A stretch of DNA of 20,485 nucleotides from a virus, in UHGV virus genome UHGV-0139389. One strand, 5' to 3'. Shown in pieces: positions 2,461 through 20,354 of the stretch. Positions within the stretch are counted from its first letter, which is position 1. Each line of letters opens with the position of its first letter. The translations under genes were made by a program, and so were the position numbers. The notes below the pieces were generated by a model. That model was not told the DNA's origin, did no database searches, and saw nothing but the letters and a program-made list of their open reading frames with translations.

Positions 2461-2724
2461 ATGGAACACGTAGAATTAACCACACTATTGCAGATTGCAA
2501 CTGACAAAGAAGACGTAGCGTTGTTTCACCGTATCGAAAGTGATTTGTTCAATGGTGAAATCATTAAAGAATCTTACGAAGTTGTCGGATTCAAAGATGG
2601 TAAAGCATTTGGCTTTTTTGACCTCGACAAAAGCAAAGCGGTTACAATGTACGATGTTCTATCTTGTGAAATTCTGACAAAATACAACGAAAAAAGGCTT
2701 GCAACCTACGCCAATATGCAGTAA
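2461..2724 (+). CDS. hypothetical protein, 87 aa (start trimmed from ORF-track 2356)
   Basis: ATG at 2461 sits at the canonical cassette position after AGGAG; the 2356 start would read through the cassette and overlap the upstream gene. Confidence 0.5.
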   Translation: MEHVELTTLLQIATDKEDVALFHRIESDLFNGEIIKESYEVVGFKDGKAFGFFDLDKSKAVTMYDVLSCEILTKYNEKRLATYANMQ

Positions 2725-2730
2725 ATTACT

Positions 2731-2792
2731 AAACAACGGGGAGGGAATGACCTTCCCCACTAAATAAAGTCCTAAACTGGAGATTCTAAATT
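2731..2792 (+). repeat. Intergenic cassette copy (hairpin 2738-2758, RBS variant CTGGAG)
   Basis: Sequence identity to other copies. Confidence 0.8.
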
Positions 2793-3041
2793 ATGTCAAC
2801 TATCCGCGTAACTGTTAATGCTTATGGCTGCCACCAACTTGATGCAAAATTCGATATCGGTGGAACAGATAACACCTTTGACCTTATCAAAATGCTGATT
2901 CAGCAGGTGATACCAGATTATAACCCTACTGATGACTTCTGGAAAGATGCCGTAAAAGAAGCCATAAACGAGGAATCTCACTACCATTATTGGGGTGACT
3001 TGATTGTCTCTCTGTACTACAGCAAACAAGGTTGCAACTAA
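2793..3041 (+). CDS. hypothetical protein, 82 aa
   Basis: ATG after cassette; last ORF of plus-strand array. Confidence 0.55.
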   Translation: MSTIRVTVNAYGCHQLDAKFDIGGTDNTFDLIKMLIQQVIPDYNPTDDFWKDAVKEAINEESHYHYWGDLIVSLYYSKQGCN

Positions 3042-3051
3042 TCGACGCAGC

Positions 3052-3104
3052 GGGGCTAAATAGCCCCAGATACCTGAAAAGCTCCTTCTCATAGGGGCTT
3101 TTTT
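3052..3104 (+). terminator. Putative terminator region: hairpin GGGGCT-AAAT-AGCCCC then GGGGC + T6
   Basis: GC stems followed by TTTTTT at 3099-3104, 11 nt after stop of 2793-3041. Confidence 0.4.
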
Positions 3105-3105
3105 A

Positions 3106-4620
3106 CGTCTATAAAGAGACTCTATACAATCCCTTTCCTTTCCTTCCCAGAATCTATCCCGTACCTTAAAAGCAATAACTCTATAGCTTACTCTATAGCC
3201 CCTTATCAAATCAACTTAAATATAAGCCCATAACCCGAAAGGGAAGGGCAACCATTTAAACGCTCTATAAAGCCCTATAACAGCCTTATCAACCTAACTT
3301 AAGCAATCATATTAACCCACTCTAAAAAGCCCTTTATAGAGCTTCCCAGAGCCTTAAAAGAATCTTATAAGGGTGTAAGCTTTATTATCTCGTTAGCTAT
3401 CTTGTGAACTACTAAAAAGGGCTTGATAGTCACTAAAAAGCATGTTATAGGGGCTATAAAGTTACTTTGAAGTAGCTTAAAAGTTACGTAAATGCTAGCC
3501 CCCTTAACATTTTCTTAACAATTTCTTAACAATCCCTACATAGTTATGCTTTTAAGGCACTTATTAGAGACTTGTTAGCCCCTTGTTAAATCTCTGTTAA
3601 GACCACGTAAAAGCCTTGTAAGAGTCTTTAGCATAGCCTTTAAAGCCTCTGTAAAGCCCTATAAAGAGGTGTCTGTATAGTTGGGGTGTAATTACTAGGA
3701 AGAGACTTAAAAGAGCTTACAAGGAGCTATAGAGAGCTTTTAAGAGGGCTATTTAGAGAATCACTAAGAGGGAAAGGGAACGATAAGAAAAGAGATAGTG
3801 ACCATGTTAATAGCTTGTTAAAAAGATTAAACACTTGTTAGGAACTTGTTAATTATCCCTACAAAATAACTCTTTAAAATTAACTTGTTAGCTCTTGTTA
3901 GTCATCTGTTAAGATTCTGTAAAGTCTATGTATCAACTGTTAAGAAACTGTTACATCCTTGTTAGTTCTGTTAAGAATCTGTTAAGACCTTTGGAGAGAT
4001 GTTAAGAGCTTGTGAGAACTGTTAAGAGATTGTTAAGGATATTTTAAAATTTTGCAAAGTACTTGTAAGGGAGTTGTTAAGGGCTACCAAGCAGATATAC
4101 ATCTTCTACAGATATTTTTGAGTTCCTTCAAAGACCCTAAAAAAATGACTTGATAGTCTTATTTTATAAAAATTTTAAAAATCTGAATAATTACCTAGAC
4201 AGTCTTTTAAAAATACAGGTAGAAACAGGCTTATAAGATACCTTGTTAGTACCGTGTTAGACCTTGTGAGATAAGGTCTGTGAAGATATTCCTGTTAAGT
4301 TTGTTAAAACAGTCTATATAGAGGCTTAGTAGTGCCTAGTGAACACCTATAGAGAGTCACATAGCTAACCTAGAGATTAAGAGGTGTATAGAGGCTTCTA
4401 AGAGCGTATAGAGAGATGGTTAAGGTGATTGTATAGGTTGTTAAGAAGGCTTGTTAGAAGAGTGTTTAGAGGGCTTATTAAAGGGCTAGTTAGAAGGCTT
4501 ATACAGGGGGGGGGGCTATTAAGACCACTAGATAGTTACTAAGATACTATATAGTACTATATAACTATATAGAGAGTAAGATTAAGAAGGTTGTTAAGAG
4601 GGATAGATATTTTGTTCACA
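3106..4620. repeat. ORF-free AT-rich region with dense degenerate short repeats ((C)TTGTTA(A/G)G, CTATAAAG, TATAGAG families)
   Basis: No ORF >=60 aa on the gene-bearing strands; CTGTTAAG / CTTGTTAG motif recurs repeatedly (e.g. 3575, 3592, 3885-3900, 3945-4025, 4245-4300, 4435-4455, 4590). Confidence 0.75.
4506..4515 (+). other. G10 homopolymer tract
   Basis: GGGGGGGGGG in otherwise AT-rich non-coding DNA. Confidence 0.9.
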
Positions 4621-4670
4621 TATGATGGTGACCCAGAGGTTGGGACAACCGATAAAATTTTATAAAAATT

Positions 4671-4693
4671 AAAAAGCCCCCAATTAAGGAGGC
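4671..4693 (-). terminator. Rho-independent terminator of minus-strand block
   Basis: Minus strand GCCTCC-TTAATT-GGGGGC followed by TTTTT, 13 nt downstream of stop at 4706. Confidence 0.5.
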
Positions 4694-4705
4694 TCTTAAG
4701 ATATT

Positions 4706-5254
4706 TTAAATCAGCGTTTCCAGAACTGTTTTCAATGATGACTTGGTTGTCTGATAAAAATGAGTAAATCCATTGTTATTATCGAATACCTGCATCATGA
4801 TATCATCTCCCTTGATTGGGTACACTCGGATATCATAGTGAAAACCATTAAAGACACAAGAACCACTACAGAATGCTCTAAAGTCATCCACTGAGATATA
4901 CTCTTCATGACCTGTGATTTTTATACAAACACCTTTACTCGGTCTCTTAGGGTTGATATCTTCCATCACAGACATACCCTGTCCACCAAGAGATACCATA
5001 GTGACCACTTTACGGTTCTTCTGTCTAAAGTACATCTTAACTTTCTGCAAAGTGTCTTCATAGAACGGATAAGACCTTTCTACAAAGATTCCTTCAAGTG
5101 GCTCTTTACCATTTTCAACTTCTCGGTTATGCCGTACTGCAAAGATAATTTGTTGGAACCAGTCAAAATTTTCTTCAGATAGTGCTTCCCGAACATCAGA
5201 CCAATCAAGGACTAGGTAGTTACCTTCAACTTCTTTTAAGTTATCTTTTTCCAT
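4706..5254 (-). CDS. hypothetical protein (182 aa from ATG; ORF-track TTG start at 5299 possible)
   Basis: ORF-track ORF begins with TTG and overlaps upstream gene by 32 nt; first ATG at 5254; start uncertain. Confidence 0.5.
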   Translation of the reverse strand: MEKDNLKEVEGNYLVLDWSDVREALSEENFDWFQQIIFAVRHNREVENGKEPLEGIFVERSYPFYEDTLQKVKMYFRQKNRKVVTMVSLGGQGMSVMEDINPKRPSKGVCIKITGHEEYISVDDFRAFCSGSCVFNGFHYDIRVYPIKGDDIMMQVFDNNNGFTHFYQTTKSSLKTVLETLI

Positions 5255-5267
5255 ATCTATCACACCA

Positions 5268-5732
5268 TTATCGTAAAACTTGGTAAGCTGGAACTGCAAA
5301 CTTGTTGTTGTTGTTCTTAATGAGGTCTTCTTCTGTTACTAAGAATGTAATCCCACATAAGTGTGTGTAGTGGCTATCATACTCAAATATTTTAAGTAAG
5401 TATTTACCATCGTGATAAACAGATTCTACTACACCTTTTGCAACAATCTTTCCAGTCTTGAAATCTTTAAGAGGGTATACGTTACCAACTTTAGGAACTG
5501 TTTTCATCTCAGGTTCTTTTAGCTTCTCACCAGCTTCTACATCACCTAGTAAGTGAGAACTCTCAAACGCTACATATTGCATATAAGCTTCTGAGCATTC
5601 CCAGATAAAACAATGTACAAGAACCTTAGCAGCATGTCTTGAGCAATTCAACTCATCACAGATTTCTTTGTACATTTCATCTTTAGTTGAATTGGTAAGC
5701 ATTGCTTTTCGAACTGTTTCTTTAATTTTCAT
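5268..5732 (-). CDS. hypothetical protein, 154 aa
   Basis: ATG at 5732; 11-nt overlap with upstream gene. Confidence 0.6.
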   Translation of the reverse strand: MKIKETVRKAMLTNSTKDEMYKEICDELNCSRHAAKVLVHCFIWECSEAYMQYVAFESSHLLGDVEAGEKLKEPEMKTVPKVGNVYPLKDFKTGKIVAKGVVESVYHDGKYLLKIFEYDSHYTHLCGITFLVTEEDLIKNNNNKFAVPAYQVLR

Positions 5733-6150
5733 AAGCTCTCCGAATAACCCTATTAAGCATCTCTAAAGTCAGCTTTCCAGATTCTAAATGTGGCATAATG
5801 AGCTTTAAAGCTTCTTCAACATCATGCACAACATCTATTATACCTTCTTCATAGGCTTCTACAAGGATATCTTTTACATTTTGTGATTTACCTTTTTGTG
5901 GTATCACTAGACGCATATCAAACTCATTTGCTTGAGGGTGGTCACTACCATGCCAGTAACCATCTTTGTTAAAGCTGATGTAGTCACCGTGGTAAAAGTG
6001 TACACCATTAGCTTTAAACTTCTCCAGCACAAGGCATTGAATTGGGTATTCAGTATTCCACTCCCTGACTCCTATAACCTTCACTGTTGCGATGTACTCC
6101 TGTGTTTTTACATCTATGATGTCAAGTTCTTGACCAGCTATGATTTGCAT
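5722..6150 (-). CDS. hypothetical protein, 142 aa
   Basis: ATG at 6150 with AGAAGG 8 nt upstream. Confidence 0.6.
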   Translation of the reverse strand: MQIIAGQELDIIDVKTQEYIATVKVIGVREWNTEYPIQCLVLEKFKANGVHFYHGDYISFNKDGYWHGSDHPQANEFDMRLVIPQKGKSQNVKDILVEAYEEGIIDVVHDVEEALKLIMPHLESGKLTLEMLNRVIRRAYEN

Positions 6151-9886: not shown

Positions 9887-10351
9887 TTACTTTGGGTATA
9901 CACTGTCAAGATAAATGTCAGCTTCCATTCTACGTCTGTTTTTCAGACCGTTTGAAGTGACCTTCTTACCTTTGACTGTAACCTTGTTCCACCACTGCAT
10001 AGCTTCTGCACAACCTACCTTATTACCAGCATTGTGGCGCTTGATAAATGTGGAATCCTGCATAGCTGTGATACCGATGTTGTATGTTTCACTTACAAGT
10101 GCATCGAACTCATTCTGAGTAGTTGGAACCTTGATAGCTTTGTTCACTGCTGCAACAAACTTCTCAACATCCGCGAGAAGATACTGTTCAGCTTGTTCAG
10201 CAGTAATTTTCATACCCATCTTAACAGGTTTTCCGTCAATACGGATTGTCCCATACCCGATTGTTGGGATTCCGGCAGAATCTTCGTAAGCCTCTAACTC
10301 CAGACCTTCGAAGAACTTAATAGCATCTAAACCTTTTCTTGAGAGTTGCAT
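9887..10351 (-). CDS. endolysin, glycoside hydrolase family 24 (T4 lysozyme-like)
   Basis: Motif FEGLELEAYEDSAGIPTIGYG (catalytic Glu, TIGYG) as recalled for T4/P22-type lysozymes; 154 aa. Confidence 0.85.
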   Translation of the reverse strand: MQLSRKGLDAIKFFEGLELEAYEDSAGIPTIGYGTIRIDGKPVKMGMKITAEQAEQYLLADVEKFVAAVNKAIKVPTTQNEFDALVSETYNIGITAMQDSTFIKRHNAGNKVGCAEAMQWWNKVTVKGKKVTSNGLKNRRRMEADIYLDSVYPK

Positions 10352-11484
10352 TACGCCTCCCCTGCTGGGTTAACTGTAACTGTTGCTGCATTGGATGTTA
10401 CAGAGCCACCTGCACCAGTAACTACACAGGTGTAGCTTCCTGCATCAGCAGCGGTCGCACCTTCTTTGGTGTAAGTTGCAGTAGTTGCATCAAGGATGTC
10501 TTCCTCACCTTTCTTCCACTGGTAACCTGTCGCACCTGTTGCCACAACATTCAGCGTTAAGGTCTCACCTTCATTGATTTCTTGATTGGTTGGCTGTTGA
10601 GTGATTACCGGAAGTGCGTTAACAGTAACCGTTGCAGGGCTAGAAGTGACAGAACCACCTGCACCTGTTACAACACAAGTGTATGAACCTGCATCTGCTG
10701 GCAGAGCACCAGACTTACTATAGGTTGCATCTGTAGCCGAAGGAATGTCAGAGCCATCTTTCTTCCACTGATAACCTGTTGCACCTGTTGCAGTCACTTC
10801 CAAGTTGATGTTTCCACCCTCATTGACGGTCTGGCTAGAAGGTTGTTGTGTAATCACAGGCAGTGCGTTGACAGTAACTGTTGCCGCATCTGAGGTAACG
10901 CTTGTCCCAGCCTCTCCAGATACAACACAAGTGTATGAACCGGCATCAGAAGGTTCTACAGACTGTTTTGTGTAGGTTGCAGATGTGGCGCTAGTGATAT
11001 CCTCACCATCCTTTTTCCATTGATATCCAGTGGCATTAGTTGCAATAACGCTTAGGGTAAGTGTACCACCTTCATTTACTGTTTGATTGGTTGGCTGTTG
11101 AGTGATTGATGGTGGCTTGATGGCGTCCTTCAACTTAGCATTCAACATTGAGAATGGTTTAACTCTTGCCAGCCATTCGCAATAAACTGTATCAACGTCT
11201 TTACCATTGATAATTGTATATTGTAAGTCCATGAAGAAGTCAGAAGTTCTCATTTGAGCACCAACACTGTAAAGCAACTCATCACTAAATGGAACTTTGT
11301 AGTCTGGTTTATAGTCAAACTTCTCAACTTCTGCAATATCAGCTTCAGGCCAATACGAGCTATAGGTAAGTGGTAAAATAGCCTCTTGATATGTTCTAAA
11401 ATCATATCTCTTACCAGCCTTTACGTTTGCAATGAAGCCCTTCACAAACTCTTTGAAGTCTGGGTAAGTCTTTGCTTTAATCAT
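10351..11484 (-). CDS. virion surface/decoration-like protein: N-terminal domain + three tandem Ig-like domains
   Basis: Three ~83-aa repeats each with GYQWKK...DAGSYTCVV (Ig-like I-set signature); N-terminal 120 aa paralogous to product of 11481-11852; function inferred. Confidence 0.7.
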   Translation of the reverse strand: MIKAKTYPDFKEFVKGFIANVKAGKRYDFRTYQEAILPLTYSSYWPEADIAEVEKFDYKPDYKVPFSDELLYSVGAQMRTSDFFMDLQYTIINGKDVDTVYCEWLARVKPFSMLNAKLKDAIKPPSITQQPTNQTVNEGGTLTLSVIATNATGYQWKKDGEDITSATSATYTKQSVEPSDAGSYTCVVSGEAGTSVTSDAATVTVNALPVITQQPSSQTVNEGGNINLEVTATGATGYQWKKDGSDIPSATDATYSKSGALPADAGSYTCVVTGAGGSVTSSPATVTVNALPVITQQPTNQEINEGETLTLNVVATGATGYQWKKGEEDILDATTATYTKEGATAADAGSYTCVVTGAGGSVTSNAATVTVNPAGEA

Positions 11485-13109: not shown

Positions 13110-13481
13110 ATGAAAAACAGAACAAACAAAGGCCAGTTTAAAAAAGGCCAGTCTGGAAACCCATCTGGAAGACCAAAAGGCTCTCGTAACAAAAGCTCAC
13201 TTGTAAAAGCTCAACTGACCATTGATAATTCTGCTGAGTTTGCTGCAAAGTTGTTTGAAGCAATTGTTACAAGGGACGCTGCTAAGCTTGCAGAGTTCGG
13301 GTTAAACACAGACGATGTAACCATCAAGAGCATGATTGAAGTCGGTAAAACTATCATGACCCACTCAGCAGGTGAGATGAAAGCAATTGCAGCAGACACT
13401 AAGAAGACTCCTGATAACGGTGGTCAGTCTCAGACAGATAACAAACCAACGTTCTCTGCTGTTGCAACCCTTAAAAAATAA
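13110..13481 (+). CDS. hypothetical protein with N-terminal GNPSGRPKG motif, 123 aa
   Basis: ATG at 13110, AAGAGG RBS; basic motif FKKGQSGNPSGRPKGSRNK. Confidence 0.65.
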   Translation: MKNRTNKGQFKKGQSGNPSGRPKGSRNKSSLVKAQLTIDNSAEFAAKLFEAIVTRDAAKLAEFGLNTDDVTIKSMIEVGKTIMTHSAGEMKAIAADTKKTPDNGGQSQTDNKPTFSAVATLKK

Positions 13482-13562
13482 TTTTAAAAGATGTTGACAG
13501 ACTCTATAAAGTTGCTCTAAAGTCTGTCACATCAAACAACAAATGAGAGAAGAGAGTAAAAT

Positions 13563-14978
13563 ATGAGCGAATTATTTAAACATGCGCACCTTCATGCAGG
13601 TCGAACTGAAAATGGTGCTGTAAACCATACTTCATCAATGTCTGCTCTTGTAGACTTTTACAAAGCTGCTGGTTCAAGCCGTAGCAATGTAGAAATCTTA
13701 CCAGACTTGTTCTACAAAGCTTTGCGTGAGGATGTTGATGTTGCAGTTCGTATTTTGCTTCATATGCGAGATGTACGAGAAGGTATGGGTGAGCGTAAAG
13801 CCTTCAGAACTGTTTTGCTTCAAGCAATTGAAGATAAAGTTTTAGAGCCTACACAGGTTCTTCGCATTATGGATAAGATTGCAGAACTTGGTCGTTTTGA
13901 TGACTTCAAAATCTTCGTGGGTACTTGTTTCGAGACAGATGCCTTCAAACATTTAGAAGCAGCATTACTAGACCCTGCAACAGCAGGTTTGGCGGCTAAG
14001 TGGTTACCACGAGTCAAACCACGTCATAAGCAGTTTGTAAAACGTTTCTGCAAGTTTGCCAACTTGAGCGAGAAAGAGTACCGCACACTGTTATCTGCAC
14101 TATCTGATACAGTTGAGCAAAAAATCTCTGCTAATGAGTTTGGCAAGATTGACTACAGTAAGGTTCCCTCACTTGCTGCTGCACGTTACCAAAAACTGTT
14201 TAACCGTAAGGATGGAGAACGTTACAAAGCTTACATTGAGTCCTTATCAAAAGGTGAGGCTAAGATTAATGCTGGTGCTGTTTACCCATACGATGTGATT
14301 AAATCTGTCAAGCATGGTAATGCAGATGTTGCTAATGAGCAGTGGAAAGCACTACCAAACTGGATGGCAGAAGGTGAAAACATCTTGTGTATGTCTGATG
14401 TATCAAGTTCAATGTCTTGGGTGAATTTTGGCTCCATTACTGCTCTGGATATTGGTGTATCACTTGCCTTGTATGTAGCAGAACGCAATACAGGTTGCTT
14501 TAAGAATGAGTTGATGGTTTATTCAACAAACCCTCACTTCATCGAACTGAGTGGTGATTTACGAAACCGTCATCGTCAGGTGATGCGACACGTTGAATAT
14601 GGCTCAACTAACTTACAAGCAGCTTTTGACCGCATTCTTGAGACAGGCAAAAGAAACAACTTGACTCAGAAAGATATGCCAAGTAAGCTTATCATCTTCT
14701 CCGATATGGAGTTTAATCAGGTTGATGGGGCTAACGGTCGTACAAACTTTGAAGCAATTCAGAGTAAGTACAAAAAAGCTGGATATGAGATGCCACAACT
14801 GGTATTCTGGTACTTAGCAAACCGTAATGGTACTTGCGAAGTATCTGTTAAGGATAACGGTGTAGCAATGGTATCAGGGTTCTCTCCAGCCACTTTAAAA
14901 GCTCTGCTTGGTGGTGAGAAGTTTGACCCAATCAGTGTAATGCTCAAAGCAGTAATGATTGACCGTTATATCTGGTAA
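13563..14978 (+). CDS. vWA-domain protein with helical N-terminal domain; candidate Ro60/TROVE-like (Rsr-like) RNA-binding protein
   Basis: MIDAS motif ILCMSDVSSSMS (DxSxS) and later FSDME strand = vWA fold; N-terminal ~280 aa helical with GMGERKAFR; resemblance to Ro60 (DVSxSM, FSDEM, MxSGF) is from memory, not a search. Confidence 0.75.
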   Translation: MSELFKHAHLHAGRTENGAVNHTSSMSALVDFYKAAGSSRSNVEILPDLFYKALREDVDVAVRILLHMRDVREGMGERKAFRTVLLQAIEDKVLEPTQVLRIMDKIAELGRFDDFKIFVGTCFETDAFKHLEAALLDPATAGLAAKWLPRVKPRHKQFVKRFCKFANLSEKEYRTLLSALSDTVEQKISANEFGKIDYSKVPSLAAARYQKLFNRKDGERYKAYIESLSKGEAKINAGAVYPYDVIKSVKHGNADVANEQWKALPNWMAEGENILCMSDVSSSMSWVNFGSITALDIGVSLALYVAERNTGCFKNELMVYSTNPHFIELSGDLRNRHRQVMRHVEYGSTNLQAAFDRILETGKRNNLTQKDMPSKLIIFSDMEFNQVDGANGRTNFEAIQSKYKKAGYEMPQLVFWYLANRNGTCEVSVKDNGVAMVSGFSPATLKALLGGEKFDPISVMLKAVMIDRYIW

Positions 14979-15143: not shown

Positions 15144-15220
15144 CTCTGTTTAGCTCAGCTTGGTAGAGCGTTCCGTTTGGGGCGGTAAGGCCGGAGGTTC
15201 AAGTCCTCCAACAGAGACCA
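15144..15220 (+). tRNA. tRNA-Pro (anticodon TGG)
   Basis: Acceptor CTCTGTT/AACAGAG (C1-G72), T-arm GGAGG-TTCAAGT-CCTCC, loop TTTGGGG, CCA encoded. Confidence 0.8.
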
Positions 15221-15227
15221 AATTAAT

Positions 15228-15305
15228 GTTCCAGTAGACAAAATGGTAAAGTCACCACTCTTTCAAAGTGGATATCTGAGGGTTCAAATCCCTTCTGGAA
15301 CGCCA
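15228..15305 (+). tRNA. tRNA-Glu (anticodon TTC)
   Basis: Acceptor GTTCCAG/CTGGAAC, anticodon stem CCACT/AGTGG, T-loop TTCAAAT, CCA. Confidence 0.8.
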
Positions 15306-15312
15306 GTTTTGA

Positions 15313-15385
15313 CAGAAGACCAATTACAGCAAACTTAATCTACTCATCTGAAAGTTAATCGGACAAAGAAGATATTTGGTCTGGT
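15313..15385 (+). ncRNA. Stem-closed spacer RNA element U1 (conserved 5' CAGAAGACC..TACAGCAA, 3' GGTCTGG)
   Basis: 5' AGACCAA pairs 3' TTGGTCT; member of 4-copy family with compensatory changes. Confidence 0.4.
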
Positions 15386-15395
15386 CATTAAGAAT

Positions 15396-15472
15396 TGCGG
15401 GTATAGAGAAAGGGCGTCTCACATGTCTCATTAGCATGGTATCGGCAGGTTCGACTCCTGCACCCGCCTCCA
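15396..15472 (+). tRNA. tRNA with anticodon CAT (Met or Ile-lysidine)
   Basis: T-arm GCAGG-TTCGACT-CCTGC, acceptor 6 bp with 1-72 mismatch, loop CTCATTA, CCA. Confidence 0.7.
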
Positions 15473-15478
15473 AATTTA

Positions 15479-15545
15479 CAGAAGACCGTTTACAGCAATA
15501 TTTATTAAATTTTTAGCGGAAAAATTGAAAGATACGGTCTGGTAA
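15479..15545 (+). ncRNA. Stem-closed spacer RNA element U2
   Basis: 5' AGACCGT pairs 3' ACGGTCT; conserved TACAGCAA after stem. Confidence 0.4.
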
Positions 15546-15555
15546 TACTAAACAT

Positions 15556-15632
15556 GGTTAGGAAGCACATAAGGTATGTGCGGTCGCCTGTTAAGCGAAT
15601 GGCACAGGGTTCGAATCCCTGACTAACCGCCA
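15556..15632 (+). tRNA. tRNA-Asn (anticodon GTT)
   Basis: T-arm CAGGG-TTCGAAT-CCCTG, acceptor GGTTAGG/ACTAACC (one mismatch), loop CTGTTAA, CCA. Confidence 0.75.
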
Positions 15633-15701
15633 AATTTAGGAGAGAAGCGATTGCTCACCGATTTGTAAGGTGCAAGTCCTTAGCCTGAATAGAAATCAAA
15701 T

Positions 15702-15789
15702 GTGTCGTTATCCCGTAGATGGTAGCGGTGGGGACTGTAAATCCCTTGTCATTGAGACTCGGTAGGTTCGACTCCTACACGGCACACCA
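15702..15789 (+). tRNA. tRNA-Tyr (anticodon GTA), long variable arm
   Basis: Acceptor GTGTCGT/ACGGCAC, loop CTGTAAA, T-arm GTAGG-TTCGACT-CCTAC, 85 nt + CCA. Confidence 0.8.
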
Positions 15790-15795
15790 AATAAA

Positions 15796-15873
15796 GGTTA
15801 TGTAGTTTAATCTGGTTAAAATACTCCCCTGTCACGGGAGATGATGAGGGTTCAAATCCCTTCATAACCGCCA
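15796..15873 (+). tRNA. tRNA-Asp (anticodon GTC)
   Basis: Acceptor GGTTATG/CATAACC, stem CTCCC/GGGAG, loop CTGTCAC, CCA. Confidence 0.85.
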
Positions 15874-15934
15874 ATTTTGAGAGGGCTATTTAGCCCCTCC
15901 CTTAAAGAGTTCTTACGAGTATTCTTTAAAGGAG

Positions 15935-16010
15935 CAGAAGACCAAATACAGCAAGAATGTATGAAATTTCAAGCCAATTCAATTTTGAAAATTTAAAACT
16001 TGGTCTGGCT
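15935..16010 (+). ncRNA. Stem-closed spacer RNA element U3
   Basis: 5' AGACCAA pairs 3' TTGGTCT; conserved 5' CAGAAGACCAAATACAGCAA. Confidence 0.4.
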
Positions 16011-16022
16011 CAACAAATTTAC

Positions 16023-16153
16023 AGAAGACCGTTTACAGCAAAACTTAAACAATCTATTTCTCCGGTAAAGAAAAGGCGAGGGTTCGATTCCTTCACTCGG
16101 CAGATGTCGAGTTGGTGTAATGGTAGCACTTAAGATGATAAACAACGGTCTGG
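16023..16153 (+). ncRNA. Candidate Y-RNA-like (YrlA-like) RNA: terminal stem enclosing tRNA-like module without anticodon arm
   Basis: 8-bp stem AGACCGTT(16026-16033)/AACGGTCT(16144-16151); inside: T-arm GAGGG-TTCGATT-CCTTC (16078-16094), capped acceptor-like hairpin ACTCGGC-AGAT-GTCGAGT (16095-16112), D-arm-like GTG-TAATGGTAG-CAC. Confidence 0.45.
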
Positions 16154-16160
16154 TAATTAC

Positions 16161-16292
16161 CTTTGTAGATAAGTTATTAAGCTTACTTGTGAGTATGCGA
16201 CCACAAAGGGTGAATGGGTAAATTCTAGATTTAAACCCAAAAAGGCACATCGCTACAGACCTTAAGCAAGTCTGGGTAGCTTATCTACAAAG
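16161..16292 (+). ncRNA. Structured element closed by perfect 13-bp long-range stem
   Basis: CTTTGTAGATAAG (16161-16173) is exact reverse complement of CTTATCTACAAAG (16280-16292); internal hairpin CAGAC-CTTAAGCAA-GTCTG. Confidence 0.4.
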
Positions 16293-16302
16293 ATAATTTA
16301 AT

Positions 16303-16378
16303 GGAAGTGTAGCAGAATGGTGATGCGGCAGACTTTTAATCTGACAGGCGATGGGTTCGAATCCCTCCACTTCTACCA
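16303..16378 (+). tRNA. tRNA-Lys (anticodon TTT)
   Basis: Acceptor GGAAGTG/CACTTCT (G1-U72), loop CTTTTAA, T-loop TTCGAAT with weak T-stem, CCA. Confidence 0.7.
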
Positions 16379-16382
16379 ATAT

Positions 16383-16459
16383 GGTTCAGTCGCAGATAAG
16401 GTAATGCAAGGGTCTCATAAGCCCTATGAATGTGGGTTCGATTCCCATCTGAACCTCCA
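16383..16459 (+). tRNA. tRNA with anticodon CAT (Met or Ile-lysidine), second copy
   Basis: Acceptor GGTTCAG/CTGAACC, stem AGGGT/GCCCT, loop CTCATAA, T-loop TTCGATT, CCA. Confidence 0.8.
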
Positions 16460-16460
16460 A

Positions 16461-16536
16461 GCTGGTATAGTTAAGAAGGTTATAACACTCCCCTGATAAG
16501 GGAACATCGGTGGTTCGATTCCACCTACCAGTACCA
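16461..16536 (+). tRNA. tRNA-Ile (anticodon GAT)
   Basis: Acceptor GCTGGTA/TACCAGT (G1-U72), T-arm GGTGG-TTCGATT-CCACC, loop CTGATAA, CCA. Confidence 0.8.
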
Positions 16537-16551
16537 ATTTCAATAAAGTTG

Positions 16552-16580
16552 TTGACATTGAGATGTGACTACTTTATAGT
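16552..16580 (+). promoter_or_regulatory. Internal sigma70-like promoter TTGACA-17 nt-TATAGT
   Basis: Counted spacing 17 nt; best consensus match in window; precedes ~200-nt unassigned spacer and tRNA-Arg. Confidence 0.5.
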
Positions 16581-16782
16581 AACCTTAGTTTTCGTTGCGT
16601 AGCGTCTATTTTGCAAATTTAAAATAAATGCAAACGACAATGTTTTTCTGGCAGTAGCTTGATAGGCTAAACACCAGTGAGGTCTTCCAATCCCTCATCA
16701 AAGAATTTGGCGTACTCGCCCACGGTATGATTAATAAGGTGGGCATCTTTAAGGGCTTTCTAAGAGAGTCTTTAAAGATAAT

Positions 16783-16859
16783 GCACCCTTAGTTCAATTG
16801 GATAGAGCAACGGTCTTCTAAATCGTTAGTTACAGGTTCGAATCCTGTAGGGTGTACCA
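16783..16859 (+). tRNA. tRNA-Arg (anticodon TCT)
   Basis: Acceptor GCACCCT/AGGGTGT (G1-U72), D-arm GTTC-AATTGGATA-GAGC, loop CTTCTAA, T-arm ACAGG-TTCGAAT-CCTGT, CCA. Confidence 0.85.
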
Positions 16860-17001
16860 AATAGTTAGCAGATTGCTTAGACGACCTTATCGGGTCTCCG
16901 TGTAAGGAGGTGGTCTGTATCTCATGTTTTCCAGAACATGTAAATAATCTGAGAAGGGGCTTTACAGTGTTGAGATAATACGGTAAGCTTCGAATTATAG
17001 T

Positions 17002-17084
17002 ATGGGACGATGTTAAGACTCTAAGGCATGAGCAACGGCTTCCAACACCGTTTCAAAGGGGTTCAACTCCTCCGTCCCATGCCA
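17002..17084 (+). tRNA. tRNA-like, probable anticodon CCA (Trp), non-canonical D region (80 nt)
   Basis: Exact 7-bp acceptor ATGGGAC/GTCCCAT, T-loop TTCAACT, loop TTCCAAC, CCA encoded; ~7 extra nt between acceptor and anticodon stem. Confidence 0.45.
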
Positions 17085-17097
17085 AAGTCTTATTAGG

Positions 17098-17185
17098 GGT
17101 AGGTAGCGGCTAATGGTAGCCAAACTGTCTTGAAAACAGTTGCCACTGTAGAGATACGGTGAGGGTTCGACTCCTTTACTTACCG
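17098..17185 (+). tRNA. tRNA-Ser (anticodon TGA), long variable arm
   Basis: Acceptor GGTAGGT/ACTTACC, stem ACTGT/ACAGT, loop CTTGAAA, 20-nt variable arm, T-loop TTCGACT; no encoded CCA. Confidence 0.75.
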
Positions 17186-17342
17186 CCTAATAAGATTTAA
17201 AGCCAAGCTTCATTCGGATGTTGCTTTGGTATACCGCGTGTATTGTTGTACACACTGATAAAACACCTAGTAGGTGTCACGGAGAAGAGATAATATCAAG
17301 CTCTCCAAAGGTTCTAGTCACCGGATTAAACAAGACTATGCA

Positions 17343-17363
17343 AAGACCTTTTTAGGTCTTTTT
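17343..17363 (+). terminator. Weak hairpin + short T-tract
   Basis: AAGACC-TTTTTA-GGTCTT then TTT. Confidence 0.3.
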
Positions 17364-17442
17364 AGAGGGCTTCTAAGGTTATTACAGCTTGTTGTGGAAC
17401 CTTGTTGCTTAGGTTCTTAGAAGTTCTCTAAAAAGATTTAAT

Positions 17443-17519
17443 GCACCTATAGCCCAACTGGTAGAGGCAGCAGACTTAGAATCTGCTCAGTGTGAGTTCG
17501 AATCTCTCTAGGTGTACCA
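17443..17519 (+). tRNA. tRNA with anticodon TAG (Leu by anticodon) but short variable loop
   Basis: Acceptor GCACCTA/TAGGTGT (G1-U72), stem GCAGA/TCTGC exact, loop CTTAGAA, 5-nt variable loop, A73, CCA. Confidence 0.7.
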
Positions 17520-17526
17520 AATTAAT

Positions 17527-17602
17527 GCAGGTGTAGCAAAATGGTTATGCGGCTGACTCTTAATCAGTAAGACGATGGGTTCAATTCCCTCCACCTGTAC
17601 CA
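17527..17602 (+). tRNA. tRNA-Lys (anticodon CTT)
   Basis: Acceptor GCAGGTG/CACCTGT (G1-U72), loop CTCTTAA, T-loop TTCAATT, CCA; paralogue of tRNA at 16303. Confidence 0.75.
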
Positions 17603-17608
17603 AACAAT

Positions 17609-17684
17609 GGGGTCATAGTTTATATGGTTAAAATTCGAGTTTTGCAAACTTGGGAACTGAGTTCAATTCTCAGTGACTCCACCA
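17609..17684 (+). tRNA. tRNA-Ala (anticodon TGC)
   Basis: Acceptor GGGGTCA/TGACTCC with G3-U70 wobble (Ala identity element), loop TTTGCAA, T-arm CTGAG-TTCAATT-CTCAG, CCA. Confidence 0.85.
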
Positions 17685-17690
17685 ATTAGT

Positions 17691-17765
17691 GCATCCATAG
17701 TTTAAACGGGAAAATTACAGTCTTCCAAACTGAGGTTGAGGGTTCGATTCCCTCTGGATGCTCCA
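17691..17765 (+). tRNA. tRNA-Gly (anticodon TCC)
   Basis: Acceptor GCATCCA/TGGATGC, loop CTTCCAA, T-arm GAGGG-TTCGATT-CCCTC, CCA. Confidence 0.85.
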
Positions 17766-17772
17766 AATTAAT

Positions 17773-17848
17773 GCTCCTATCGTATAATTGGTTATTACGG
17801 TTGCCTTGTAAGCAACTTATCAGGGTTCGAGTCCTTGTGGGAGCACCA
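17773..17848 (+). tRNA. tRNA-Thr (anticodon TGT)
   Basis: Acceptor GCTCCTA/TGGGAGC, stem GTTGC/GCAAC, loop CTTGTAA, T-loop TTCGAGT, CCA. Confidence 0.85.
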
Positions 17849-17944
17849 ATTCAGAGGTCAAGTGAAAGACCGCTTTGAGTCAACTGAAGACCGTAACAAA
17901 TTCCACGAAGTTGAGTTAGCGGCACAACTTCAGACCTCTTTCAT

Positions 17945-18019
17945 ACTCGCTTAGTTTATATGGTAAAACATCACCCTTACAAGATGAAGAAAAAGGTTCA
18001 AGTCCTTTAGTGAGTACCA
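17945..18019 (+). tRNA. tRNA-Val (anticodon TAC)
   Basis: Acceptor ACTCGCT/AGTGAGT, D-arm GTTT-ATATGGTA-AAAC, loop CTTACAA, T-arm AAAGG-TTCAAGT-CCTTT, CCA. Confidence 0.8.
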
Positions 18020-18020
18020 T

Positions 18021-18098
18021 GTTCCAGTATCCCAATTGGCAGAGGATGCAAGCTCAAACCTTGTATTAGTGACGGTTCGAATCCGTCTTGGAACACCA
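18021..18098 (+). tRNA. tRNA with anticodon CAA (Leu by anticodon) but short variable loop
   Basis: Acceptor GTTCCAG/TTGGAAC, loop CTCAAAC, T-arm GACGG-TTCGAAT-CCGTC, A73, CCA. Confidence 0.7.
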
Positions 18099-18103
18099 AT
18101 TTT

Positions 18104-18179
18104 GCAGGATTAGTTCAAATGGAAAGAGCAACAGTCTACGAAGCTGTTAATAGGGGTTCGAATCCCTTATCCTGCGCCA
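18104..18179 (+). tRNA. tRNA-Arg (anticodon ACG)
   Basis: Acceptor GCAGGAT/ATCCTGC, D-arm GTTC-AAATGGAAA-GAGC, loop CTACGAA, T-arm AGGGG-TTCGAAT-CCCTT, CCA. Confidence 0.85.
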
Positions 18180-18196
18180 GATAAAAAGGTGATACT

Positions 18197-18439
18197 ATGC
18201 AAACATTAACAGTAGTTGAACATGAAAACTGTGAGAGTATTGAGTTTGTCAGGGTCATTGGTGTTGAACACCACATTTTCTTAAAAGTGGGATACTTATG
18301 TGACCCCGCTAGAGTAGAAAGATTTATACGTGATTGTTTTGGTGGTAGACAGCTGAAGAGTGTTATTTTTGAGACAGTTTTACCAGAAGGTTTAGAAACG
18401 AATAATAACATTTACCTCCTTACGAGGATTAGACAATGA
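18197..18439 (+). CDS. hypothetical protein, 80 aa, embedded in tRNA array
   Basis: ATG at 18197 with AAGGTG RBS; ATGA overlap with next ORF. Confidence 0.55.
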   Translation: MQTLTVVEHENCESIEFVRVIGVEHHIFLKVGYLCDPARVERFIRDCFGGRQLKSVIFETVLPEGLETNNNIYLLTRIRQ

Positions 18440-18993
18440 GATACTTAAAGTATGCTTCATGGATTTTCTTAGCTTTGTTAGAGCCATTTGCAGCAATCTT
18501 AGCAGTTATCTTAGCACCTTTTGTAGTTCCATTCTACAGTGAGAAGAAAGGACACTTACCTTTCGGGTTCAGATGGATGGAGACTTATGACAACCCAATT
18601 GATGGTGATGCAGGTCATATCAAACGATGGGCTAAGATTAGAAAGATTGGTAAGCTTGGTGTCTACATGCAGAGAGTTGGATGGCTCTGGAGAAACAAAG
18701 CTTATAACTTCTCTTACCATGTATTAGGAAGAGATGTAAAAGATGTTACTAAGTGGAAAGGTAATATCAACGTAAGTTCTAACCCTGAAGATAATCAGAC
18801 TGGTTATCTCCTAATGTGGAACAGTAATGCTTGGGGATTATTCGCTTTTGTGCCGTCAATCAAAATCTTTGGTAAACAATTTTACTGGAGAATTTATGTT
18901 GGGTGGAAACTTAAAAGTGTTGTCCCAGAAGAAAGAGCATTTTCAAGGGAAAGAGTTATGTTGGCATTCTTTATTCATCCACTAAGAAAGTAA
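18436..18993 (+). CDS. hypothetical membrane protein, 185 aa (N-terminal TM helix)
   Basis: ATG at 18436, GAGGA RBS; hydrophobic N-terminus WIFLALLEPFAAILAVILAPFVVPF. Confidence 0.6.
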   Translation: MRYLKYASWIFLALLEPFAAILAVILAPFVVPFYSEKKGHLPFGFRWMETYDNPIDGDAGHIKRWAKIRKIGKLGVYMQRVGWLWRNKAYNFSYHVLGRDVKDVTKWKGNINVSSNPEDNQTGYLLMWNSNAWGLFAFVPSIKIFGKQFYWRIYVGWKLKSVVPEERAFSRERVMLAFFIHPLRK

Positions 18994-19001
18994 AGATTTA
19001 A

Positions 19002-19077
19002 AGGGGATTAGTTTACAAGGTTAAAACCTCGGTCTTTGAAATCGAAGAAGTTGGTTCAATTCCAACATCCCCCGCCA
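19002..19077 (+). tRNA. tRNA-Gln (anticodon TTG)
   Basis: Acceptor with A1/C72 mismatch then GGGGAT/ATCCCC, loop CTTTGAA, T-arm GTTGG-TTCAATT-CCAAC, CCA. Confidence 0.75.
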
Positions 19078-19079
19078 AT

Positions 19080-19158
19080 GCTCCATTACTCCAATTGGCA
19101 GAGAGGCCAGACTTAAAATCTGTGTTATGTATCGGTTCGAATCCGATATGGAGTACCA
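19080..19158 (+). tRNA. tRNA with anticodon TAA (Leu by anticodon) but short variable loop
   Basis: Acceptor GCTCCAT/ATGGAGT (G1-U72), loop CTTAAAA, T-arm ATCGG-TTCGAAT-CCGAT, A73, CCA; D-arm paralogous to tRNAs at 17443 and 18021. Confidence 0.7.
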
Positions 19159-19163
19159 AATTT

Positions 19164-19239
19164 AGCGGTATAGCATAACTGGCAATGCAGCAGTCTCTGA
19201 AGCTGTCCTATTAAGGTTCAAATCCTTATGCCGCTGCCA
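19164..19239 (+). tRNA. tRNA-Gln (anticodon CTG)
   Basis: Acceptor AGCGGTA/TGCCGCT, D-arm GCAT-AACTGGCA-ATGC, loop CTCTGAA, T-arm TAAGG-TTCAAAT-CCTTA, CCA. Confidence 0.7.
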
Positions 19240-19270
19240 CTTCTAAGGATTCTTACGAGAGTCCTTAAAT

Positions 19271-19346
19271 GTGGCCTTATCATAAATGGTAATGACCCAT
19301 GCTGTGAACATGGTCTATACGGGTTCAAATCCCGTAGGTCACCCCA
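19271..19346 (+). tRNA. tRNA-His (anticodon GTG)
   Basis: Acceptor GTGGCCT/AGGTCAC, stem CCATG/CATGG exact, loop CTGTGAA, C73, CCA. Confidence 0.85.
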
Positions 19347-19352
19347 ATTTAT

Positions 19353-19428
19353 AGTCCAAGTAGCTTATATGGTTAAAGCGCGTGTCTGAAAAACATGAGA
19401 AGAGGGTTCAAATCCCACTGGACTACCA
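19353..19428 (+). tRNA. tRNA-Phe (anticodon GAA), boundaries +/-2 nt
   Basis: D-arm GCTT-ATATGGTTA-AAGC, stem CGTGT/ACATG, loop CTGAAAA, T-loop TTCAAAT; acceptor register ambiguous. Confidence 0.65.
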
Positions 19429-19444
19429 ATTTCAAAGGTGCTTA

Positions 19445-20179
19445 ATGAAAGAGATGACAGAACAAGGTAAGGAGATTTTCAATCTCTTAAAAACCGGTAA
19501 AGGGTTTTCTAACCCCCTTATTACTGGTGCAGCAGTTCTCGGTGGAACCGTAGCTGCCTCTACATCACTTGTAAGCTCTATTAGCTCTGTATCAGACCCT
19601 ACAGTAAAGGATAAGCTTGTTGCTGCTGGACTTACAACAGTTCTGCTTAACAGCTTTACCACGAGTCTGACAAGCACTACATCAACTACCAAAACACTAA
19701 CAGATTACGGTCAAAAGTCCATTGATGAGTTTTCATCACGTATGCAGGTAGCAAAAGGTTACTCTAATGTTATGGGTGCAGCAGGTGAACAAGTTGGCTG
19801 TACACCATTTAGTGGTATTATGGGTGTTGCTACAGAGTATGGTCAAAAAGCTATTGATACGATTAACAGTGCACTAGATAGTGTTAATGGTGTGTTAAGT
19901 GACTTACAAGATGCTATTGACAAAGGTCTTGATACTATTTCTGATTTAGCTGAGCAAGCTGTTAGTAAGATTAATGAAGGTATTTCAAAAATTACAGCTT
20001 ATGCAGATGAAGTTGTGCAGATGATTGAAGAAGAAGCTGCTCTTATTGCAGAGTACCTTAAAACGAATATCAATGGGTTCTTAGCAGGTATCTTACCAGA
20101 CTGGTTTGATGATGCTTGTAAAACTGGTGTAATTGACACTATTGCAACACCAGAAATGAAGAACGCATTACAGAAATAA
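19445..20179 (+). CDS. hypothetical protein, 244 aa, Ser/Thr-rich segment (start trimmed from 19382)
   Basis: ORF-track start 19382 lies inside tRNA-Phe; first ATG after the tRNA is 19445 with AGGTG upstream. Confidence 0.6.
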   Translation: MKEMTEQGKEIFNLLKTGKGFSNPLITGAAVLGGTVAASTSLVSSISSVSDPTVKDKLVAAGLTTVLLNSFTTSLTSTTSTTKTLTDYGQKSIDEFSSRMQVAKGYSNVMGAAGEQVGCTPFSGIMGVATEYGQKAIDTINSALDSVNGVLSDLQDAIDKGLDTISDLAEQAVSKINEGISKITAYADEVVQMIEEEAALIAEYLKTNINGFLAGILPDWFDDACKTGVIDTIATPEMKNALQK

Positions 20180-20181
20180 AT

Positions 20182-20274
20182 GGAAGATTAACCCTAAAAG
20201 GTAAGGGAGCAGTTTGCTAAACTGCTAGTAGCTGAGAAATCGGTGTACCAGTTCAAGTCTGGTATCTTCCTCCA
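20182..20274 (+). tRNA. tRNA-Ser (anticodon GCT), long variable arm
   Basis: Exact acceptor GGAAGAT/ATCTTCC, stem GCAGT/ACTGC, loop TTGCTAA, ~21-nt variable arm, T-arm ACCAG-TTCAAGT-CTGGT, CCA. Confidence 0.8.
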
Positions 20275-20278
20275 ATTT

Positions 20279-20354
20279 GAATCCGTGACAGAAACGGCTA
20301 TGTGCCTGTCTGCAAAACAGGTTTATAAGGGTTCGAGTCCCTTCGGATTCTCCA
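20279..20354 (+). tRNA. tRNA-Cys (anticodon GCA)
   Basis: Exact acceptor GAATCCG/CGGATTC, stem CCTGT/ACAGG, loop CTGCAAA, T-loop TTCGAGT, CCA. Confidence 0.85.

Follow-up and report, generated by a model that had tools for sequence, protein, structure and literature searches.

The direct terminal repeat of phage T7, 160 bp in length, was reportedly described by Dunn and Studier in 1983 together with its short-repeat arrays (SRL and SRR). Other phages provide terminase recognition arrays, such as the R sites of lambda cosB with IHF, the hexamer repeats of P1 pac and the pacL and pacR boxes of SPP1. Repeats also mark iteron origins (e.g., lambda ori), where the iterons are typically 17-22 bp long, few in number and accompanied by an initiator gene at or beside the origin. 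The terminal repeat of T5 is, on the other hand, ~10 kb long and coding, and carries an injection-stop signal inside. Here we describe positions 3042-4705 of a 20,485-nucleotide segment of the virus genome UHGV-0139389 (the whole segment is referred to as the window), a 1.66-kb region free of open reading frames (ORFs) and filled with short, helically phased repeats. We consider it probable that this ORF-free region is the concatemer junction of a Felix O1-like phage, with a direct terminal repeat (DTR) at 3498-4088 and a lattice of short units that positions the terminase cuts via a recognition protein. A sequence search with the region matched 257 phage records, nearly all of them Felixounavirus, and 200 of these covered at least 80% of its length at 80-93% identity. 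Based on these matches, we assign the source of the segment to a Felix O1-like myovirus of the genus Felixounavirus.

The location of the DTR is predicted from the ends of seven relatives (ZX4221, NBEco004, Pr103Blw, HP1, SPARTY, Roscha1 and UAB_Phi87), as given by their records or by published termini. ZX4221 carries at both record ends an exact 591-bp repeat that is 95.9% identical to 3498-4088 and starts at the base homologous to 3498. Likewise, the NBEco004 record (Felixounavirus) has 628 bp repeated exactly at its two ends, and this repeat maps onto 3498-4088. The base homologous to 3498 is where the records of ZX4221, Pr103Blw and HP1 begin and where the NBEco004 record ends. Positions 1-581 of the Pr103Blw record are annotated as a "short direct terminal repeat region", and PhageTerm assigned this phage to DTR packaging with 581-bp repeats (PMC8303462). 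The Pr103Blw DTR opens with GCCCCCTTAACA… and closes with …GGGCTACC/AAGCAG (here and below, a slash marks the cut), and the window is identical at these points. Citrobacter phage HP1 (Mooglevirus) has a repeat_region annotated at 1-570, at the homologous place. For Hafnia phage SPARTY (Kolesnikvirus), PhageTerm was used to re-orient the record, and the DTR is 439 bp long (PMC8928762); the record starts within the syntenic ORF-free region, its first 439 bp recur at the record end, and the record of Erwinia phage Roscha1 has the same start base. Across the Felixounavirus, Mooglevirus and Kolesnikvirus records, the end positions are homologous bases, one Kolesnikvirus end being offset by 3 nt. 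Further relatives also have records that begin or end at the DTR boundaries, and an IMG/VR contig (IMGVR_UViG_3300045988_004931) ends at ~3500, the left boundary of the DTR. The DTR sizes published for relatives are 581-613 bp (PMC6454146, PMC8303462), with 613 bp determined by PhageTerm for Ro111lw (PMC6454146), and the large terminase (TerL) of the Felix O1 group clusters with the DTR type (PMC4837284).

Transferred to the window, these ends predict a 591-bp repeat that would be present once per junction in concatemers and at both ends of the virion DNA, with putative terminase cuts between 3497 and 3498 and between 4088 and 4089. The window would therefore display the concatemer form, that is, a junction with one collapsed copy of the DTR. 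An initial annotation of the sequence had listed a packaging region among several options and a comparison with the terminal-repeat regions of related phages among the checks. That option held up: the ends of the relatives map to 3498 and 4088, and the predicted DTR and both cut sites lie inside the region. The terminal part of the IMG/VR contig also contains the opening 55-67 nt of the DTR in scrambled tandem copies, which probably arose as an artefact when a physical end was assembled.

Conserved boxes stand outside both cuts (Table 1). Across genera, the left boundary reads …TACGTAAATGCTA/GCCCCC and the right boundary GGGCTACC/AAGCAGATATACA, and the box outside the right cut is identical or near-identical among ZX4221, HP1, Pr103Blw, SUSP1 and Rouille (Rouille form, AAGTAGATATACA). 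When read inward, both ends start with (GGTA)GCCC(CC)TTAACA, and an inverted terminal TGTTAAGGG unit that points toward the end lies 6-8 nt inside each cut. The last forward TGTTAR unit of the DTR (TGTTAAGGGCTACC/) adjoins the right cut, and TGTTAR or CTN4AG units are found on both sides of both cuts. An inverted-repeat scan for hairpins near the cut sites returned only the terminators at the edges of the region and the palindromes of an A/T-rich block.

The units just mentioned pervade the region. Consistent with the recurring (C)TTGTTA(A/G)G-type motif that the initial annotation had reported, TGTTAR occurs 25 times in forward and 3 times in reverse orientation, versus 1.8±1.3 expected when the region is shuffled with its dinucleotides preserved, and 15 forward copies are found in the remaining 18.8 kb of the window. 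The general repeat unit is, however, better described as CTN4AG, an 8-mer with an A/T-rich centre (e.g., CTGTTAAG, CTTGTTAG, CTATAAAG, CTTAAAAG, CTCTATAG and CTATATAG), of which TGTTAAG is a subfamily. The region contains 69 copies of CTN4AG (41.5/kb versus 10/kb in the rest of the window), while dinucleotide-preserving shuffles contained 12.5±3.4 and 25 at most, and the pattern ranked first in frequency among the 768 gapped dinucleotide patterns tested. The distances between pairs of copies cluster at 10-11, 21-22, 31-33 and 42-43 bp, with none shorter than 10 bp, and 28 adjacent spacings are of 10-12 bp, as opposed to 0.3 in shuffles. The period of this lattice is ~10.6 bp. Self-match analyses gave z-scores of 10-18 at lag 11 across the region and further peaks at its harmonics (21, 31 and 42); the only periodicity of the coding controls was 3 bp. 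The 10-11 bp spacing first noticed at 3885-4030 is, thus, real as a periodicity but is not restricted to that interval, as it spans the whole region. In other words, the entire 1.66 kb is a lattice of ~70 8-bp CTN4AG units placed one helical turn apart. The orientation of the units is mirrored about position ~3660, with C-rich tails on the left (…AGCCC) and G-rich heads on the right (GGGCT…), and the local GC skew switches because of this mirroring.

To assess constraint on the lattice, we compared the window with 20 distinct Felixounavirus sequences, in which the non-coding region is 1635-1785 bp long. Mean identity to the window is 87-95% depending on the sub-block (87% for the left and 91% for the right flank array) and 80% and 92% for the flanking genes. 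The TGTTAR cores are 98.6% conserved versus 89.8% for the other positions of that stretch, a value that none of 5000 random placements matched, and each of the TGTTA core positions is 98.6-100% conserved. The sizes of large indels are concentrated at 10-12 and 19-27 bp, multiples of ~11 bp, which indicates that whole units are gained and lost while the helical phase is kept. The least conserved part is the hypervariable block at 4439-4515, where identity falls to 0.62-0.84. Deletions of 11, 12 and 24 bp are found there, the copy number of the tandem repeats varies, and the G-run (the G10 tract already pointed out in the initial annotation, located at 4506-4515) is 5 bp shorter in eight of the compared genomes. 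Conservation extends beyond the genus. In SUSP1, identity is 74% for the region and 77% for the DTR but 63-64% for the adjoining genes; between genera, conservation is higher in the region than in the genes beside it. The Kolesnikvirus counterpart is a 1.47-kb ORF-free stretch with 19 forward and 8 reverse TGTTAR units, 11 copies of TTCTAAR and a lag of 11-12, and the Suspvirus counterpart (1.69 kb) contains 58 CTN4AG and 20 TGTTAR units. Hence, both motif and phasing recur in Kolesnikvirus and Suspvirus, and the region is conserved over four Ounavirinae genera.

Table 1. Features of the ORF-free region and its edges (window coordinates).
Feature	Coordinates	Strand	Description
Predicted terminator zone of the plus-strand small-ORF block	3052..3106	+	Two hairpins, inverted repeats I8 and I9
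Left flank array, C-rich orientation	3107..3477		Units CTNTAAAG-CC(C) and CTCTATAG; 10-11-bp lattice; strand asymmetry
Conserved box outside the putative left cut	3478..3497		..GTTACGTAAATGCTA/; kept in SUSP1, partly in Rouille
Predicted short direct terminal repeat (DTR), 591 bp	3498..4088		Homology to relatives with determined ends
Reverse units just inside the left end	3504..3532	-	CTTAACA x3, 11-bp spacing
18 forward TGTTAR units within the DTR	3573..4081	+	Mostly 9-11-bp spacing or multiples
Conserved box AAGCAGATATACA outside the putative right cut	4089..4101		ZX4221, HP1, Pr103Blw, SUSP1, Rouille
A/T-rich block with overlapping palindromes	4102..4230		TTTTATAAAAATTTTAAAAA; palindromes I1, I4, I12
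Right flank array, G-rich orientation	4231..4660		(G)GGCTNNTTAG-AG, TATAGAG x5, TGTTAR x7
Hypervariable sub-block	4439..4515		12/24-bp tandem repeats 4439-4502, spacer 4503-4505, G10 4506-4515
Predicted intrinsic terminator of the minus-strand block	4672..4697	-	Terminator scan; terminator annotation in the wV8 record

By analogy with T7 and with cos and pac systems, we infer that the lattice binds a packaging-recognition protein that places both cuts. The units would provide cooperative binding sites for a phage DNA-recognition protein, perhaps the small terminase or a partner, which would contact the helix on a single face and bend the junction or wrap it. The protein-bound junction would, in turn, guide the large terminase to both boundary boxes. 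The concatemer would contain one DTR per junction, which DNA synthesis would later duplicate, following the T7 model, and the two convergent gene blocks that flank the region would simply stop transcription against it. A bolder version, which we offer tentatively and with more doubt than conviction, regards the 1.66-kb junction as a nucleoprotein scaffold whose ~70 sites, once bound cooperatively by a small DNA-binding protein that would serve as the "small terminase" of Felix O1-like phages, would measure the cuts 591 bp apart. Together with the A/T-rich block, the scaffold might also link packaging to DTR duplication or to the initiation of replication. If true, the scaffold would be a packaging-recognition architecture that greatly exceeds every characterised cos or pac site in size and is more regular.

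Several observations weigh against a junction organised by a lattice-binding protein. The termini of the present phage are derived by homology to relatives rather than from its own reads, and the inverted symmetry of the ends is weaker in Kolesnikvirus. Further, the general CTN4AG unit shows a modest excess of conservation over the spacers that is not significant (206 of 2000 random placements). To our knowledge, the function of the T7 short-repeat arrays was never established. PHROGs and Pfam scans produced no small terminase or DNA-binding assignment for the window proteins scanned or for the 66-aa ORF upstream of the TerL gene, which lies outside the window; only the large terminase is recognisable in the Felix O1 group (PMC4837284). 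The 123-aa DUF5681 protein encoded at 13110-13481, which heads the plus-strand block running toward the terminase gene, had no relative of solved structure in a PDB sequence search.

The most direct conflict comes from the GenBank record of UAB_Phi87, which has an identical 542-bp duplication at its ends (JN225449, 1-542 and 87062-87603) equivalent to 18661-19202 of the window, in the tRNA region. Taken as physical ends, these record ends would seem to exclude a terminus in the ORF-free region, but they are incompatible with the published restriction fragments and genome size. The Bal31-sensitive SpeI bands of UAB_Phi87 are 4322 and 2819 bp (PMC4837284). In-silico digestion with SpeI using the record ends yields terminal fragments of 1134 and 16247 bp and no fragment close to the Bal31-sensitive bands, whereas placing the ends at the ORF-free DTR, predicted at ~15152-15765 of JN225449, yields 4431 and 2751 bp. 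In addition, the unit genome of 87,061 bp plus the published DTR of 608 bp adds up to 87,669 bp, the published size (PMC4837284). Therefore, the experimental data agree with termini in the ORF-free region, and the 542-bp duplication is probably not a real DTR.

A packaging junction is not the only element that could accommodate phased repeats. The region could be, or include, a replication origin, with the repeats acting as iterons and the A/T-rich block at 4102-4230 as the unwinding element, a scenario that we consider unlikely. Repeats aligned on one helical face do adjoin a block of low GC content (0.23 at 4142-4241) with overlapping palindromes, which, at 94-96% identity, ranks with the best-conserved parts of the region, and Rouille has a similar A/T-rich element that is likewise flanked by TGTTAAG arrays. 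By its composition and palindromes, the block may act in DNA unwinding or as an origin, or it may belong to the packaging signal. The selective conservation of the TGTTAR cores also makes the "iteron-like binding sites" of the initial annotation plausible as binding sites. As iterons they are atypical, since the units are only 8 bp long and their ~70 copies are well above typical iteron sets, and PHROGs and Pfam scans recognised no initiator gene among the flanking genes. Cumulative GC skew, which had been suggested as a check, was calculated for the window and for the whole genome of UAB_Phi87; it follows the direction of transcription in both and carries no independent origin signal. The cumulative curve of UAB_Phi87 has a net drift, and its extreme at the rotation point is therefore meaningless. 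Finally, the identity of the region as a predicted terminus already accounts for its location.

The same periodicity could reflect structural DNA, that is, intrinsically curved A/T-rich DNA bound by host nucleoid proteins (H-NS, IHF or Fis) or by nothing specific, whose role would be to handle the ends inside the capsid, at the portal or upon ejection instead of being recognised by terminase. A period of ~10.6 bp in A/T-centred units is the classic signature of curved DNA, and the protein scans found no phage binder. Curvature would not, however, require a near-invariant TGTTA core, let alone one kept in four genera, and we judge this explanation to be quite improbable.

The edges of the region suggest a simpler function. 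The initial annotation had described the gene blocks on either side as divergently oriented, but they converge on the region: the plus-strand genes end at 3041 and the stop of the minus-strand gene (4706-5299) is at 4706. Both edges carry terminator hairpins. On the plus-strand side, the first hairpin (GGGGCTAAATAGCCCC) spans 3052-3067 and the second 3077-3102, followed by a T-run, and the zone is at least 95% conserved in the 20 genomes; the terminator of the minus-strand block is 98% conserved. The absence of genes in between was confirmed by a small-ORF scan, which detected no ORF longer than 37 aa within 3042-4705. A 137-aa antisense ORF overlapping the gene at 2793-3041 is the sole longer ORF that touches the region and was judged spurious. 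Convergent operons separated by terminators are what a transcriptional buffer with incidental repeats would look like. Yet the terminators take up less than 100 bp and leave 1.5 kb of phased units unexplained, and a buffer accounts neither for the mapped termini nor for a cross-genus conservation that exceeds that of the flanking genes. For these reasons, we regard a buffer as very unlikely.

A long, conserved non-coding stretch could also encode one or more non-coding RNAs, as the initial annotation had proposed, and the folding z-score of 4089-4345 is mildly low (approximately -2). This score is equal on both strands, as palindromes acting at the DNA level predict, promoter-like (sigma-70-like) sites are not enriched (11 versus 7.9±3.0), and an Rfam scan of 2500-5300 at E<=1 gave one chance-level match (E = 0.23). 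We give this option very little credence. Least credible of all is a T5-type injection-stop signal or a collapsed assembly artefact, both raised at the outset and suggested by the T5-like, repeat-rich non-coding sequence and by database records that break inside it: the region appears to be the terminus itself, with a non-coding 0.6-kb repeat rather than an internal site of a 10-kb repeat, it is present and collinear in >200 independent genomes, many records break exactly at the DTR boundaries as real ends predict, and the collapse is benign, the single DTR copy being the concatemer form.

Unit pairs at 11-bp spacing were also observed beyond the region. TGTTAR occurs at 19882 and 19893 (plus 19960), inside the ORF at 19382-20179, and pairs of CTNTWARG are found at 13504/13515, just upstream of the gene at 13563, and at 5750/5761. 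These outlying pairs (19882-19966, 13504-13522 and 5750-5768) may be extra sites for the lattice binder, or chance. [quoted passage not shown] Elsewhere in the window, 26 tRNA genes occupy 15144-20354 on the plus strand, interrupted by a DUF7338 ORF (18436-18993) and a DUF7217 ORF (19382-20179). Directly upstream of the tRNA cluster, 13563-14978 encodes a 471-aa protein (named "vWFA" in UAB_Phi87) with matches to PHROG 850 ("RNA-binding protein") and to Pfam DUF2828 and DUF7788; it may carry a Ro/TROVE-like RNA-binding module. A GC-rich island at 10001-11250 (0.45-0.48 versus ~0.38) falls in a 377-aa ORF (10351-11484) that is a putative tail protein in relatives.

The ORF-free region goes unmentioned in the genome papers of Felix O1, wV8, VpaE1 and Mordin, and literature searches found no published description of the phased lattice. 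The repeat units are, thus, apparently undescribed before; as for the DTR, several GenBank entries already list it. Its mapping fixes the true start and end of Felix O1-like genomes, most of whose >250 records were opened arbitrarily, usually at rIIA, and at least one of which (UAB_Phi87) apparently has a spurious end duplication. It also defines the likely packaging signal of a phage group widely used to type Salmonella and E. coli, for biocontrol and for engineering reporter phages. This is useful when transducing or packaging-competent constructs are designed, and helps to keep insertions away from sites where they would be disruptive. Further, the regularity and conservation of the lattice make it a tractable system to study the role of short-repeat arrays near the ends of DTR phages and a handle for seeking the small terminase of the Felix O1-like group.

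How closely the locus resembles described systems depends on the feature compared. As in T5, a repeat-rich non-coding segment is tied to the genome ends, but the repeat is here 0.6 kb long and non-coding and nothing points to a two-step transfer. Iteron origins share the phased direct repeats next to an A/T-rich segment yet differ in the length and number of the units (8 bp and ~70 copies here) and in the initiator gene, which is not recognisable in the flanks of the region. The resemblance to cos and pac sites is in the several short repeats placed around a cleavage site, with a phasing that suggests wrapping by an oligomeric recognition protein. In contrast to the 3-7 sites and known small-terminase binder of cos and pac arrays, the lattice has ~70 units with no identifiable small terminase, and two cut sites 591 bp apart instead of one. 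T7 is the closest match. When we checked its sequence, we found 22 C[CAT]TAAAG units at 13-bp spacing in and beside the 160-bp repeat. T7 and the present phage share a short exact terminal repeat and fixed sequence-specific ends, both predicted here by homology, and in each a short motif with an A/T centre, which in T7 ends in AAAG, forms non-coding arrays within and next to the repeat. The T7 units (CCTAAAG) are, however, 13 bp apart and number ~20 over ~0.35 kb, whereas ~70 CTN4AG/TGTTAAG units are spaced by a helical turn over 1.66 kb here. Moreover, T7 transcribes its early genes inward from the left end, while both gene blocks are transcribed toward the ends here, in an 87-kb myovirus that uses the host RNA polymerase; therefore, the junction-processing steps that depend on T7 RNA polymerase cannot apply. 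With these differences, the region is a known kind of element, a well-conserved T7-type DTR terminus with flanking short-repeat arrays.

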